The notes under the pieces were generated by a model. That model was not told where the DNA came from. It was given only the letters and a program-made list of their open reading frames with translations, and did not search any database. From contig JAGRGD010000278.1 in assembly GCA_020445665.1 (NCBI GenBank), forward strand, positions 12,987 through 76,986: DNA of 64,000 bases. Reading direction: 5' to 3'. The stretch comes from Rhodocyclaceae bacterium (lineage in GTDB: Bacteria > Pseudomonadota > Gammaproteobacteria > Burkholderiales > Rhodocyclaceae). Shown piece after piece: positions 3,168 to 8,361 of this stretch (position 1 is its first letter; each line of letters opens with the position of its first letter). The position numbers and the translations under genes were made by a program.

Positions 3168-4355
3168 ATGAACGACTTCATCCAATCCTCGATGCCCGGC
3201 AGGCTGCTGCTGGCGGCCTGCGTTGCGTTGCTCGCCGCCTGCGTTTCGACCCCTGAAAAGGAGGCCGAGGCCGAGCCGGTCGTCGTCACGCCTGCAGAGC
3301 AGGCCGAGCAGGAAGCCGCACCCGAGCCGCCACCGCCGCCCAAGATCGCAACGCCCGCCGAACAGCAGGAGGCGCAACGGGTGGCCCTCAAAGTGGCCGA
3401 CCTCCTCGAAGCCGGCAAGATCGAAGAGGCCCACGTGGAAATCGAGCGTGCGCTGGAGATCGACCCGGCGAACAAGCTGGCCCAGAACTTCCTGATGCAG
3501 CTCACGGCTGACCCGGTGACGGCCCTGGGCGAGACTTCCTTCCCGTACACGGTCAAGTCGGGCGAGTCCCTGTCCAAGATTTCCGGCCGCTACATGGGCG
3601 ATATCTTCCAGTTCTACATTCTGGCTCGCTACAACGGGATCGCCGTGCCACGTCTGGTGGCGGCAGGCCAGACGATCCGGATTCCCGGCGACAGGCCGGT
3701 GGAGACCAAGGCGCCGAAGCCAGCACCGAAGCAGGTTGTCGAGACACCAGCGCCGAAGCCGACCGAGCCCCGCACGGTCGAGCCCGAGCCAGTTGAACAC
3801 AAGGTGGCCCAGCCCAAGGTGGCCGAGCCCGAGAAGGTGAAGGTGGAGCCCGAGGTGGTCGAGGTGCCCACCAAGGAGGCGCCCGTGGTCGAGGAGGCGA
3901 CCCCGGTCGAACTGGCGAAGCCGGTCGTGCCGACGGCTGTTGAAGTGCCTGCGGCCGTTGAGCTGGGCGGCACGCCGCCGGTGCTCGGGACGACGAAGGC
4001 CGACGTGTCTCCCGGCCCGCTCCCCCCGCCCGAGCCGACGCCCGCTGACCGCATGTTCCAGCGTGGCCTGCGCGAGCAGGCCCAGGGCAACAACCTGGCG
4101 GCCTACCAGGCATTCAGGGAGGCTTATGCGATGGATCCGAGCAACCGTGAGGCGCGTAGCAACGCCGATCTGATGCACCAGGAAATCGTCGCAGACTATA
4201 TGCGGCGCGCTCGCGCCGCCTTCGCCAAGCAGGATCTCAAGGGCTCCATCAAGCACTGGGATCAATTGCTGGACTTCGATCCGGGCAATGAGATTGCGAT
4301 GCTCGAGCGGCAGAAGGCGATTACGCTCCAGGAGCGCATCAAGTCCATCCAGTAG
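3168..4355 (+). CDS. LysM domain lipoprotein with TPR-like repeats and a Pro/Glu/Val-rich linker
   Basis: There is a lipobox LLAAC|V after a signal peptide. The LysM motif is YTVKSGESLSKISGRYMG...GQTIRIPG. Long PE/PK/PV low-complexity linkers are present, and TPR-like helices occur at both ends. Confidence 0.8.
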   Translation: MNDFIQSSMPGRLLLAACVALLAACVSTPEKEAEAEPVVVTPAEQAEQEAAPEPPPPPKIATPAEQQEAQRVALKVADLLEAGKIEEAHVEIERALEIDPANKLAQNFLMQLTADPVTALGETSFPYTVKSGESLSKISGRYMGDIFQFYILARYNGIAVPRLVAAGQTIRIPGDRPVETKAPKPAPKQVVETPAPKPTEPRTVEPEPVEHKVAQPKVAEPEKVKVEPEVVEVPTKEAPVVEEATPVELAKPVVPTAVEVPAAVELGGTPPVLGTTKADVSPGPLPPPEPTPADRMFQRGLREQAQGNNLAAYQAFREAYAMDPSNREARSNADLMHQEIVADYMRRARAAFAKQDLKGSIKHWDQLLDFDPGNEIAMLERQKAITLQERIKSIQ

Positions 4356-4392
4356 CGATGTGCCGGCCGGGTCCATGTGGCCCGGAGGCGTC

Positions 4393-6349: not shown

Positions 6350-8361
6350 GCGCGGGACGTGTCCGGGCCAGCACCGGGCGCTGGCATGTCGTCGGCCATC
6401 TCGGTGGGCGGTTCGCCGAGTGGTGCGACCATTTCGATATCGTCCTGCGGCCCACCCTGGTCCTGCGCCCAGCGGGTCTCGAGACCGGCGGCCATGTCGT
6501 CGAACGACTGGTAGAGCAACCCGAACTCGTCGTTGCGCCGCTCGGCGATGCGGTGATCGAGACGCCCGGCACCGATCTCCCGCATCGATTCCTCGAGCAA
6601 GCGGATCGGTCGGGAGAACCAGTTTGCGAGCATCCATGTGCCTGCCGCGACGGCGGCGATGGTGGCCAGCACGAGGGCGACCATCAGGCCGATCGCGAGA
6701 CGGGAGACCCGGGTCAGCGGTGCCTCGGGGAGGTCGAGGGCGATGCGTCCGATCTCCTTCGACTGGAACGTGATCGGCGCATTGAAGTTGATCACCGAGT
6801 CGTCATCGAGCTCGACCCGCCGGACTTCGACCGTGCCGCCCGGATTGGCGATGAGCTCACCGGTTGGCGGCACATAGTTCGCCTCGAGCAGGCTGGCGTT
6901 GCTGCTCGCTCGCACGATACCGCCCCGGTCCACGACCGTCAGGCTCTTGAAGTCCTGGGTGCGCATGACCTCCTGGATGAACACCTCGACGGAGATCCAG
7001 TCCTCCGACAGGGCAGGTACCGCGCTCTGGGTCGCCATGAAACGGGCCAGCGAGGCCCCGTAATCGGTTACCTGAGAGACCAGTGCGGCGTGCTGGCGCT
7101 GGGTCACGATGCTCGCGGTGACGCCCATCACGGCGGCCACGAAGACCGCCATCATCAGGGTCCATTTGACACGTAGCGGGATGATGCGGGGGCGGTCCGG
7201 CCGCTCCTCCTCGAGGGTACGGATCAGCTTGACCAGGGCGTCGGCGAGCTCCCTGCCGGTCTGGTAGCGACGCTCCGGCTGCTTGGTCAGGCAACGGTCG
7301 ATGACCCGCCGCAGCGCCGCGGGTGTTTCCGGCCGCAGCTTCTGGATCGTCGGGGGGTTCTCCTTGGCGATCTTCATCATCAGGGCGACGATGGTGTCGG
7401 CCTCGAAGGGCTTCTGCCCGGTGATCAACTGGTAAAGCACGATGCCGACCGAGAACAGGTCCGAGCGGCCGTCCACCTTCTCGCCCATGGCCTGTTCGGG
7501 CGACATGTACTGGGGTGTGCCGATCACGTCCCCGATCCGTGTGTGCTGGGTGCGCGAGGCGGACTCGAGGTGGGCAATCCCGAAGTCGGCCACCTTGATG
7601 GAGTTGCGATTCTTGCTGACGATGATGTTGGCGGGCTTGATGTCCCGGTGGACAACGCCCTTGCTATGGGCATAGTCGAGCGCACGGGCCAGCTGAATGC
7701 CCATCTCCAGGACCTGCTTGATCGAGAAATTGGCCCCGCTGCTCATCAGCTCGCTGAGGGGTTCGCCGTCCAGCAGTTCCATCGCAATGTACGGGCGGCC
7801 CTCGATTTCGCCGACGTCATACACCGTGGCGATGTTCGGGTGTGTCAGCATGCCCGCTGCGCGGGCCTCGCGCAGGAAGCGGTTGCGGTACTCGTCGTCT
7901 TCGCACAGGGAGGCGTGAAGGAACTTGATCGCGATGGTCCGGTCGATGCCCGGATCGTGGGCCTTGAAGACGGTGGCCATCCCGCCGCGGCCGAGCAGTT
8001 CCAGAATCTGGTAACGGCCGACCTGGCGCACATCGGACCGGTCCTGCGCGGTGGCGCCCTTGCCGGGAATGGTGGCGAATCCGTTCGTGGGCTCTGCGTG
8101 ACGCTTGGGCGCAATGCGCGTGCGATTGTCGTCTTCTGGATGATCCGTCGACTGGCTGGCCGCCAGCGCTGCCAGCGCCGCTATCGCCTGGTTGGGCGGG
8201 GCGATGCGGGTGCGGTTGTCGTCGTCATCCACGTCGAACGGGTCCGGCTTGGAGGCCGGCTCCTGAGGCGTCGTCGGCCCGATGGTGTCTTCACTCGACG
8301 GATCGATCTTCCGTTCCTTCTCGTCACTCACTCGTCTTTCCTCGGTGCTTGTCACGTCCAT
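6346..8361 (-). CDS. Transmembrane Ser/Thr protein kinase with a periplasmic sensor region and a C-terminal HAMP domain
   Basis: Hanks kinase motifs are present: GRGGMATVF, IAIKFL, HRDIKPANI, ADFGIA and GTPQYMSPE. These are followed by a TM segment, a loop of about 150 aa, a second TM segment and a HAMP domain (WFSRPIRLLEESMREIGAGRLDHRIAERRNDEFGLLYQSFDDMAAGLE). The start is taken at ATG 8361 (MDVTSTEE...); the track ORF extends to 8436. Confidence 0.85.
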   Translation of the reverse strand: MDVTSTEERRVSDEKERKIDPSSEDTIGPTTPQEPASKPDPFDVDDDDNRTRIAPPNQAIAALAALAASQSTDHPEDDNRTRIAPKRHAEPTNGFATIPGKGATAQDRSDVRQVGRYQILELLGRGGMATVFKAHDPGIDRTIAIKFLHASLCEDDEYRNRFLREARAAGMLTHPNIATVYDVGEIEGRPYIAMELLDGEPLSELMSSGANFSIKQVLEMGIQLARALDYAHSKGVVHRDIKPANIIVSKNRNSIKVADFGIAHLESASRTQHTRIGDVIGTPQYMSPEQAMGEKVDGRSDLFSVGIVLYQLITGQKPFEADTIVALMMKIAKENPPTIQKLRPETPAALRRVIDRCLTKQPERRYQTGRELADALVKLIRTLEEERPDRPRIIPLRVKWTLMMAVFVAAVMGVTASIVTQRQHAALVSQVTDYGASLARFMATQSAVPALSEDWISVEVFIQEVMRTQDFKSLTVVDRGGIVRASSNASLLEANYVPPTGELIANPGGTVEVRRVELDDDSVINFNAPITFQSKEIGRIALDLPEAPLTRVSRLAIGLMVALVLATIAAVAAGTWMLANWFSRPIRLLEESMREIGAGRLDHRIAERRNDEFGLLYQSFDDMAAGLETRWAQDQGGPQDDIEMVAPLGEPPTEMADDMPAPGAGPDTSRA

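Follow-up and report, generated by a model that had tools for sequence, protein, structure and literature searches.

A four-gene envelope unit lies at positions 3168 to 8361 of the window, a 64,000-nucleotide stretch of a Rhodocyclaceae bacterium genome (contig JAGRGD010000278.1, positions 12,987 to 76,986). The unit consists of a gene for a transmembrane Ser/Thr kinase, followed by genes for a LysM-CE4 lipoprotein (a LysM domain joined to a deacetylase domain of the CE4 family) and a TPR lipoprotein, together with a convergent gene for a LysM-TPR lipoprotein. From the gene anatomy, domain folds, conservation, coupling and linkage to type VI secretion system (T6SS) genes in relatives, we put slightly better than even weight on the interpretation that the module is the peptidoglycan-linked sensor arm of a PpkA-type kinase, analogous to TagQRST, and that its four genes form one trans-envelope signalling unit. 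The best reading is of a new sensor-arm variant within a pathway of a known kind; support for it is good at the level of the family, and for the window genome it is unproven. The genes and junctions are as follows.

6346..8361, minus strand: Ser/Thr kinase gene, 671 amino acids from the ATG at 8361; the start is uncertain, with the open reading frame (ORF) open to a TTG at 8436.
5297..6349, minus strand: LysM-CE4 lipoprotein gene, 350 amino acids from the ATG at 6349.
4425..5300, minus strand: TPR lipoprotein gene, 291 amino acids.
3168..4355, plus strand: LysM-TPR lipoprotein gene, 395 amino acids, convergent on the minus-strand trio.
6346..6349, minus strand: ATGA overlap of the kinase stop codon (TGA) and the CE4 start codon (ATG), from a direct read of the junction.
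5297..5300, minus strand: ATGA overlap of the CE4 stop codon (TGA) and the TPR lipoprotein start codon (ATG), from a direct read of the junction.
4356..4424: spacer of 69 nt between the convergent genes, with two strong GC-rich hairpins.

A first-pass annotation of the window, made from the letters alone, had described the same ORFs, the two ATGA couplings at 6346..6349 and 5297..5300, and lipoboxes, LysM, TPR and CE4 motifs in the products. All of its ORF coordinates agree with the ORF list and direct reads, both couplings are seen in direct reads of the minus strand, and the motifs lie where it placed them in the translations and Pfam matches. It had further proposed neighbour conservation of the minus-strand trio as a check, and this is borne out by the comparison that follows.

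One genome per GTDB species was scanned, giving 262 species with a relative of the deacetylase, and the best 80 of these 262, each with up to 10 kb of flank per side, make up the locus set (L numbers below). The set includes Rhodocyclaceae and Zoogloeaceae metagenome-assembled genomes (MAGs) and many Burkholderiales (Roseateles, Ideonella, Piscinibacter, Rhizobacter, Rubrivivax, Aquabacterium and others), and gene presence was scored by tblastn with the window proteins. The kinase gene is directly upstream of the CE4 gene in 78/80 loci, with one of the misses at a contig end, and the TPR gene is directly downstream in 77/80, where two misses are contig ends. The LysM-TPR gene is found downstream in 71 of the 80 and is convergent in 71/71; six of the misses are contig ends. 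This arrangement is far from chance. Of 70 scorable loci, 62 retain the 4-nt overlap of the CE4 and TPR genes, despite a TPR protein identity of only ~30% within the set. The kinase and CE4 genes share a -4 overlap in 20 of 68 scorable loci, and in most of the others a gap of 7-20 nt separates the two. Each of the four window genes is intact, and comparison with L001-L003 indicates purifying selection on all of them, with dN/dS values of 0.08-0.30 that are approximate since dS is near 1.

The link to secretion comes from the flanks. Flanking ORFs of the 80 loci were clustered and representatives scanned against Pfam; all neighbour families present in at least 13 loci were scanned, and one (f13) is without a Pfam match. 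Recurrent in the flanks are TagH (FHA + T6SS_FHA_C), PP2C, TagF (TagF_N), TssM (IcmF) and TssL (DotU-OmpA), and further a separate OmpA protein, VgrG, DUF2169 and DUF6484. The typical order in the T6SS-linked relatives is VgrG ... kinase > CE4 > TPR > < LysM-TPR, then TagH > PppA > < TagF < TssM. Scoring with family hidden Markov models (HMMs) places one or more T6SS markers within 10 kb in 50/80 loci, two or more in 45 and three or more in 35, with TagH in 43/80 and PppA in 39/80. The position beside a T6SS cluster with PppA and Fha/TagH that is a feature of PpkA/TagE-type kinase genes is thus seen for most relatives, and is not seen for the window copy.

A neighbour-joining tree of the kinases of the locus set has T6SS linkage spread over its whole extent. 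The window clade has eight members, all in a context of phospholipase D (PLD) and histidine kinase genes, and is sister to the T6SS-linked Rhodocyclaceae loci L008, L011 and L020; two 'SLT2-only' clades are nested inside T6SS-linked groups. Because the linkage is spread across the tree, and because the window clade is sister to T6SS-linked loci, it looks ancestral, and the simplest reading is that it has been lost at least three times. A gene for an MltB-like lytic transglycosylase (SLT_2 + PG_binding_1) adjoins the LysM-TPR gene in 14 loci, with or without T6SS genes (for example L019, L023, L031, L039, L054 and L079).

More distant relatives show which part of the module is constant. Searched exhaustively by HMM, the sensor region of the kinase gives 201 clusters (50% identity) at E <=1e-30, and a word-based homologue search with the same region gives 28 matches, mostly fragments. 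The contigs of seven more distant kinase representatives were inspected and re-scored with the family HMMs, and the gene orders among distant loci are as follows.

L081: full four-gene module.
L084: kinase > CE4 > TPR > < LysM-TPR < PP2C.
L082: LysM-TPR > kinase > TagH, with a 4-nt overlap of kinase and TagH.
L088: LysM-TPR > kinase > TagH-like > PP2C.
L083: TssM > TagF > PP2C > PP2C-kinase-HAMP fusion.
L085: small FHA protein > kinase > < LysM-TPR.
L086/L087: kinase > < LysM-TPR.

The kinase and the LysM-TPR protein make up the invariant core: their genes occur together in 6/7 of the more distant relatives, usually in the company of FHA, PP2C and T6SS genes. The betaproteobacterial subfamily has the CE4 and TPR pair in addition to this core. 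We also note that the fusion in L083 (4144..6660) is an 838-aa protein of PP2C and kinase-HAMP parts, and that its gene directly follows those for TssM, TagF and a separate PP2C protein.

The kinase itself has an acidic N-terminal tail, the kinase domain, a transmembrane (TM) segment, a periplasmic single-Cache domain, a second TM segment, a HAMP domain and an acidic, Pro-containing tail. Its parts, all encoded on the minus strand, are these.

8220..8203 and 8130..8113: duplicated acidic Thr motif (D/E)DDNRTRIAP, residues 48-53 and 78-83, from the translation.
7261..8013: Pkinase catalytic domain, residues 117-367 (Pfam E 2.5e-50).
7164..7102: TM1, about residues 400-420, a hydrophobic segment.
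6700..7101: periplasmic single-Cache (PDC) sensor domain, about residues 421-554, from Pfam, an AlphaFold2 model and Foldseek.
6699..6631: TM2, about residues 555-577, a hydrophobic segment.
6478..6630: cytoplasmic, C-terminal HAMP domain, residues 578-628 (Pfam E 1.1e-14).

The catalytic set is complete in the translation (K146, E165, the HRD D240, the DFG D259 and GTPQYMSPE). The best NCBIfam match is to PknB-type kinases and covers the kinase domain only (positions 7-277 of 563 of the PknB_PASTA_kin profile), and neither Pfam nor NCBIfam identifies a PASTA domain in the protein. The periplasmic domain of ~135 residues has a weak Pfam match to sCache_3_2 (E 0.08), and the same family (PF17203) is precomputed on several kinase homologues. 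An AlphaFold2 model of the TM-ectodomain-TM-HAMP part has a mean pLDDT of 82; its best Foldseek match is a TM-Cache-TM-HAMP model of WalK (TMq 0.71), and the ectodomains of WalK, CitA, DcuS and DctB are also matched, with E values of 1e-8 to 1e-4. The kinase thus has the succession of TM segment, PDC-fold ectodomain, TM segment and HAMP domain of single-Cache + HAMP sensors, and the modelled fold makes it a sensor kinase of the Cache-HAMP type. The ectodomain contains no Cys in the translation, hence no CXXCH and no c-type haem site, and so does not belong to the haem Cache domains. The protein ends shortly after the HAMP domain, and Pfam finds no output domain behind it. The topology is unusual in that a terminal HAMP must act back on an N-terminal kinase. 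The transmembrane Hanks kinase of the first-pass annotation therefore stands, with its Pkinase domain and two TM segments, and gains a Cache sensor and a HAMP domain that it had not mentioned.

The N-terminal tail carries candidate sites of phosphorylation. Both copies of (D/E)DDNRTRIAP are retained in L001-L007, most other orthologues have a single acidic motif D/E-x-T-R/Q-I/V-x-P in the tail, and a second motif, (A/E)TLPG, stands directly before the catalytic domain. The acidic Thr motifs and (A/E)TLPG may be autophosphorylation or FHA-docking sites.

The LysM-CE4 protein is the probable deacetylase of the module, and its features, on the minus strand, are the following.

6277..6275: lipobox Cys25, from the translation.
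6169..6038: LysM domain, residues 61-104, Pfam 20.8 bits against a cutoff of 20.9.
5992..5318: PgaB/IcaB-type CE4 de-N-acetylase domain, about residues 120-344 (Polysacc_deac_1 E 1.6e-25).

A profile match to plant LysM receptors supports the borderline LysM. The window protein has the motifs TIDDGY, HSRTH and YPYGD and an N-terminal CYHRF, and its metal and catalytic residues follow the PgaB-type order (N-terminal His, DD pair, H-x3-H). The deacetylase is probably active, because the lipobox Cys, the catalytic residues and the motifs are invariant in 22 homologues: CYHRF (H127), TIDDGY (D183/D184), HSxTH (H238/H242) and YPYGD. Its best NCBIfam matches are PgaB (TIGR03938, 132 bits against a cutoff of 321.9) and IcaB (81.7 against 248). 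The PgaB match is limited to positions 2-266 of the 621 in the profile, and the C-terminal domain of PgaB is absent. The nearest solved structures in a profile search are IcaB (4WCJ), PgaB (3VUS/4F9D) and BpsB (5BU6).

The two remaining lipoproteins are built around TPRs, with the following parts.

TPR lipoprotein, residues 42-147 and 193-288: two TPR modules, from TPR_14 and TPR_2 (Pfam) and an AlphaFold2 model.
TPR lipoprotein, residues 139-158, 4886..4827, minus strand: conserved motif ERTRNRRYFLGKPTRLTIGR, spanning the end of module 1 into the disordered linker.
LysM-TPR lipoprotein, residues 77-111, 3396..3500, plus strand: TPR part (Pfam).
LysM-TPR lipoprotein, residues 127-173, 3546..3686, plus strand: LysM domain (Pfam E 1e-7).
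LysM-TPR lipoprotein, residues 295-380, 4050..4307, plus strand: C-terminal TPRs (Pfam).

In the AlphaFold2 model of the TPR lipoprotein both modules have pLDDT values >90 and the joining linker is disordered (<50); the conserved motif that runs into it looks like a short linear docking peptide. The protein is small, with two modules and without the barrel of a TPR-plus-barrel protein, and a structure search gives generic TPR matches alone (OGT, SPY, BamD, MamA). The LysM-TPR lipoprotein has a Pro/Glu-rich linker after the lipobox and a long Pro/Glu/Lys-rich one between the LysM and the C-terminal TPRs, and a sequence search against solved structures yields only weak LysM and TPR domain matches. 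NCBIfam gives no specific family for either TPR protein, with matches to TraC, Tgl, BamD and MamA far below the cutoffs. All three lipoproteins have a signal peptide that ends in L-A-(G/A)-C, at VLAGC(25) in the CE4 protein, ALAGC(20) in the TPR protein and LLAAC(25, or 18) in the LysM-TPR protein, with no Asp at +2. In E. coli the Lol rule is that Asp at +2 decides the sorting of lipoproteins, and by this rule the lack of Asp at that position suggests that all three are anchored in the outer membrane.

A plausible scenario can be drawn from these parts. The inner-membrane kinase and the three outer-membrane lipoproteins would together span the periplasm. The LysM-TPR lipoprotein, as the constant partner of the kinase, is probably a peptidoglycan-binding co-sensor; the two LysM domains would bind peptidoglycan, and the CE4/TPR pair, made in a fixed ratio by translational coupling, would edit its N-acetylglucosamine (GlcNAc) residues. 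The Cache domain would read the state of the layer or of the assembly, either via the lipoproteins or through a small product, and the signal would reach the kinase by way of both TM helices and the HAMP domain, controlling its dimerisation and autophosphorylation, the latter possibly on the conserved acidic Thr motifs of the N-terminal tail. An FHA protein, in most relatives TagH, would then read the phosphothreonine and PppA would reset it. As TagH is encoded beside the module with PppA, TagF and TssM in most relatives, T6SS firing is the likely output there, and in the T6SS-linked relatives the module would thus exert post-translational control of firing as a peptidoglycan-based counterpart of TagQRST-PpkA. 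In the lineage of the window the target of the kinase is either encoded elsewhere in the genome or something different.

The module is a concrete and widespread candidate T6SS sensor, one that would tie the phospho-switch of the T6SS to peptidoglycan-binding lipoproteins and a glycan deacetylase and bears on the open question of when and where a T6SS decides to fire. It would also be a rare case, among Gram-negatives, of a Hanks kinase that is linked to the cell wall and has no PASTA domains. The question is testable in cultivable Roseateles, Ideonella, Piscinibacter or Rubrivivax.

Several points weigh against the sensor-arm interpretation. No T6SS, TagH-type FHA or PP2C gene is found in the 64-kb window by tblastn and family-HMM searches (targets TagH, PppA, TagF, TssM, VgrG, DUF2169 and SLT2), and the value of the finding is lower for the window alone because the module is there detached from any T6SS gene. 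The seven closest loci share the non-T6SS context of the window and two further clades adjoin a lytic transglycosylase gene instead of a T6SS; the module can therefore work without T6SS neighbours. As the 80 loci are phylogenetically related, the 50/80 with T6SS markers are not 50 independent events, and ORF calling in high-GC DNA is rough. The nearest characterised relatives of the CE4 enzyme act on poly-N-acetylglucosamine (PNAG) and not on peptidoglycan, and the Cache assignment is at the level of the fold (13-17% identity) and carries no information on a ligand. The functional steps, namely lipoprotein localisation, substrate, ligand, phosphosites and T6SS output, are read from genomic context.

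The lineages that lack T6SS neighbours lead to a different account, in which the module serves T6SS-independent homeostasis or protection of the cell wall. The kinase would monitor peptidoglycan in the manner of WalK or PASTA kinases, the LysM-CE4 enzyme would de-N-acetylate peptidoglycan and so tune sensitivity to autolysins, lytic transglycosylases or lysozyme, and the adjacency to T6SS genes would be secondary. The window clade and both 'SLT2' clades keep the genes conserved and under purifying selection with no T6SS neighbours, the lytic transglycosylase gene stands beside the module in 14 loci, WalK is the best structural match of the sensor, and the module has two LysM domains, all of which suit this account. 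However, linkage to TagH, PppA, TagF and TssM is the majority state and is spread over the whole kinase tree, it is found again, in rearranged operons, among distant relatives without a CE4 gene, and the similarity to WalK is at the fold level only; we regard wall homeostasis as doubtful, if worth keeping in mind. Rather less likely is an enzyme-coupled trans-envelope damage sensor in which injury to the wall leads directly to Thr phosphorylation and to T6SS firing at that site. Peptidoglycan exposed or cut, for instance by an incoming T6SS or a lytic attack, would be the target of the LysM-anchored de-N-acetylase with its TPR partner, and the signal, whether acetate, a de-N-acetylated muropeptide or changed LysM-TPR binding, would be read by the Cache domain as its ligand. 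Such a sensor would amount to a peptidoglycan-based 'tit-for-tat', mechanistically unrelated to TagQRST, and would be portable and re-wirable to other outputs in lineages such as that of the window.

The likeness of the CE4 domain to PgaB, IcaB and BpsB, in both profile and solved-structure sequence searches, raises modification and export of an exopolysaccharide, as in PgaB/PgaA, with the enzyme acting on a PNAG-like polymer, the TPR proteins as scaffolds and phosphorylation as the control. This is the export analogy that the first-pass annotation had drawn, and it does not hold up well: the scores fall far short of the equivalog cutoffs (132 vs 322 bits for PgaB and 82 vs 248 for IcaB) and the PgaB C-terminal domain is missing, the TPR proteins are small lipoproteins without a barrel, no GT2 synthase or outer-membrane porin is among the identified recurrent neighbour families of the 80 loci, and the genes that do recur belong to T6SS and peptidoglycan functions instead. 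We consider it quite unlikely. What survives of the broader proposal of a glycan modification and sensing module coupled to Ser/Thr phosphorylation is the conserved envelope module, in which lipoproteins that bind and modify GlcNAc glycans are coupled to a transmembrane Hanks kinase, without the PgaA/PgaB export part. An anti-phage kinase system acting by abortive infection, as in PD-T4-6 or Stk2, is very improbable. The kinase domain has strong matches to PD-T4-6 and mad6 in PADLOC, and also to MADS6 in NCBIfam, but nothing outside the generic catalytic domain (residues ~110-390) is matched, PADLOC recognises none of the three lipoproteins, the module genes are syntenic, chromosomal and outside defence islands, and a periplasmic sensor with lipoprotein partners and T6SS context is a poor fit to a cytoplasmic phage sensor. 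A defence identity (PD-T4-6, MADS) is thus rejected because the PADLOC matches do not extend past the kinase domain, and no system partners are present.

The setting of the module in the window is otherwise unremarkable. G+C content is 63-71% across the whole window with no compositional break at the module locus. The spacer between the convergent genes folds strongly (4345..4435, minimum free energy -51.6 kcal/mol, z -3.3, with 0/200 shuffles as stable), and it is likely a two-way terminator common to the trio and the LysM-TPR gene. A scan of 3000..8700 for promoter and terminator consensus sequences gives counts near those of shuffled sequence. Pfam scans of ten other large window ORFs reveal only genes unrelated to the module; the unrelated ORFs include the nusA-infB operon, glycine-cleavage genes and genes that encode a methyl-accepting chemotaxis protein, a GGDEF-EAL protein and a cytochrome like MtrC. 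The GGDEF-EAL protein (42061..45492, minus strand) is a 1143-aa signalling protein with dCache-PAS-PAS-GGDEF-EAL order. The cytochrome (24872..26884, plus strand) is a 670-aa multihaem protein with MtrC/MtrF-like domains, possibly of extracellular electron transfer, and a similar gene is also found near the distant kinase relative in L085.

Upstream of the module, a hybrid histidine kinase gene (8490..10493, plus strand; HAMP-HisKA-HATPase_c-REC by Pfam) is divergent from the Ser/Thr kinase gene. The first-pass annotation had listed it with the cluster, as divergent from the kinase gene; the gene is there as described, but it is present in only 6/80 loci (L001-L003 and L005-L007), that is, in six of the seven closest, and does not belong to the module. 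The hybrid histidine kinase, a cardiolipin-synthase-like PLD, PPK2 and LysR are excluded as parts of the unit because they are syntenic only among the seven closest loci. Synteny of the module with the block at 8490..13197, which holds the hybrid histidine kinase, PLD and PPK2 genes, is limited to the closest Rhodocyclaceae MAGs. Within the block the hybrid histidine kinase is fast-evolving, with 73% identity to its L001 counterpart vs 91% for the Ser/Thr kinase.

Among other variations in the locus set, we note two cases of apparent double copies, both of which rest on the assembly labels as given. L019 and L046, both labelled Piscinibacter sakaiensis 201-F6, are diverged copies of the module apparently in one genome and in different contexts, and in the Rubrivivax MAG bin.222 (L037 and L048) one copy is T6SS-linked and the other is not. 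A Roseateles/Mitsuaria clade (L051, L053, L062-L064, L069, L074 and L080) has its TPR and LysM-TPR genes set apart by 3-9 kb of inserted DNA, which encodes among others a PEP-CTERM protein, a radical-SAM protein and an acyltransferase (Acyl_transf_3); an acyltransferase within a deacetylase module is suggestive of control of acetylation state. L079, from a Rhizobacter MAG, has the CE4, TPR, LysM-TPR, TagH and PppA genes and no kinase of this family within 10 kb upstream. It has a RIO1-type kinase gene near the module, which recurs in L031, L039, L054, L060 and L071.

Comparison with known systems places the module nearest to the T6SS threonine-phosphorylation pathway. Like PpkA/TagE, the module kinase is a membrane Hanks kinase with a folded periplasmic domain, and as with PpkA-PppA-Fha its gene adjoins T6SS genes (TagH, PP2C, TagF and TssM) in 50/80 relatives. 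PpkA of P. aeruginosa has a von Willebrand-A-like ectodomain and is not known to carry a HAMP domain. The module kinase differs in its single-Cache ectodomain, second TM segment and HAMP domain. Placing one or more outer-membrane lipoproteins and periplasmic partners upstream of a kinase recalls TagQ/TagR (PMC10482370, PMC13584744), but the accessory proteins of TagQRST and RtkS have a different make-up from the LysM/TPR lipoproteins and CE4 deacetylase of the module, and neither an ABC-type (TagS/TagT) nor an FGE-sulfatase-type (TagR, COG1262) family is among the recurrent neighbours. Activation of the T6SS kinase is known only for Pseudomonas (TagQRST) and, in part, Serratia (RtkS), each bacterium has its own mechanism of T6SS activation, and the activating protein in Agrobacterium is not known (PMC10482370). 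Azoarcus, which is a relative, has a working PpkA/PppA/TagF circuit without TagQRST, for which its authors expect a different signal (PMC6423157); the Azoarcus BH72 paper makes no statement on what separates pppA and ppkA. A 2026 catalogue of T6SS accessory factors includes no LysM, deacetylase, TPR or HAMP component (PMC13584744). Mentions of LysM in a Pantoea/Erwinia T6SS paper concern effectors and not this module. The first-pass annotation had not recognised the cluster as a characterised system, and in agreement with this the literature searched (T6SS, LysM, deacetylase, HAMP, TagF, Fha and peptidoglycan deacetylase) yielded no published description of the four-gene module.

The separate parts have relatives in other systems. 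PgaB is an outer-membrane lipoprotein, as is predicted for the module CE4 protein. PgaB, IcaB and BpsB are its best profile and solved-structure matches, and the YHR His, DD pair and H-x3-H are invariant in the module enzyme; it differs from PgaB in its N-terminal LysM, in having no C-terminal PNAG-binding domain and in scores far below the family cutoffs, and no PNAG synthase of the PgaC/IcaA (GT2) type, glycosyltransferase or export porin is among the identified recurrent neighbour families of the 80 loci. In Legionella, de-N-acetylation of peptidoglycan GlcNAc by PgdA controls localisation and function of the Dot/Icm T4bSS via an OmpA-like protein (PMC10266036). The module shares with this case a CE4 deacetylase and, in relatives, OmpA-type domains close by (TssL-OmpA and the separate OmpA protein), but the Legionella case involves another secretion system, with no kinase and no LysM, and the peptidoglycan activity of the module enzyme is putative.

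On the sensor side, the CHH (Cache_heme-HAMP) receptor of P. azotoformans binds a separate Ser/Thr kinase (bioRxiv 10.64898/2026.05.25.727664). Both systems have a periplasmic Cache domain followed by a TM segment and a HAMP without an enzymatic output of its own, a PASTA-less PknB-like kinase and often a PP2C gene nearby. However, in the module the kinase and receptor are one polypeptide with the kinase N-terminal to TM1, there is no CXXCH or any Cys, the kinase has no C-terminal helical HAMP-binding repeats, and the partners are LysM/TPR/CE4 lipoproteins and T6SS genes. WalK (YycG) offers the closest TM-sCache-TM-HAMP structure (TMq 0.71) and, with YycH/YycI, a parallel of an envelope sensor with accessory proteins that apparently reads the cell wall, but the output of the module is an N-terminal Hanks kinase in place of DHp/CA and the likeness is at the fold level (13-15% identity). 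With the PASTA kinases (PknB/Stk1) the module shares the pairing of a Hanks kinase with peptidoglycan sensing, and it differs in lacking PASTA domains, in its Gram-negative envelope and in delegating peptidoglycan binding to separate LysM lipoproteins. The output side of the module matches the T6SS threonine-phosphorylation pathway (PpkA-PppA-Fha), whereas its input side is unlike that of TagQRST or RtkS.

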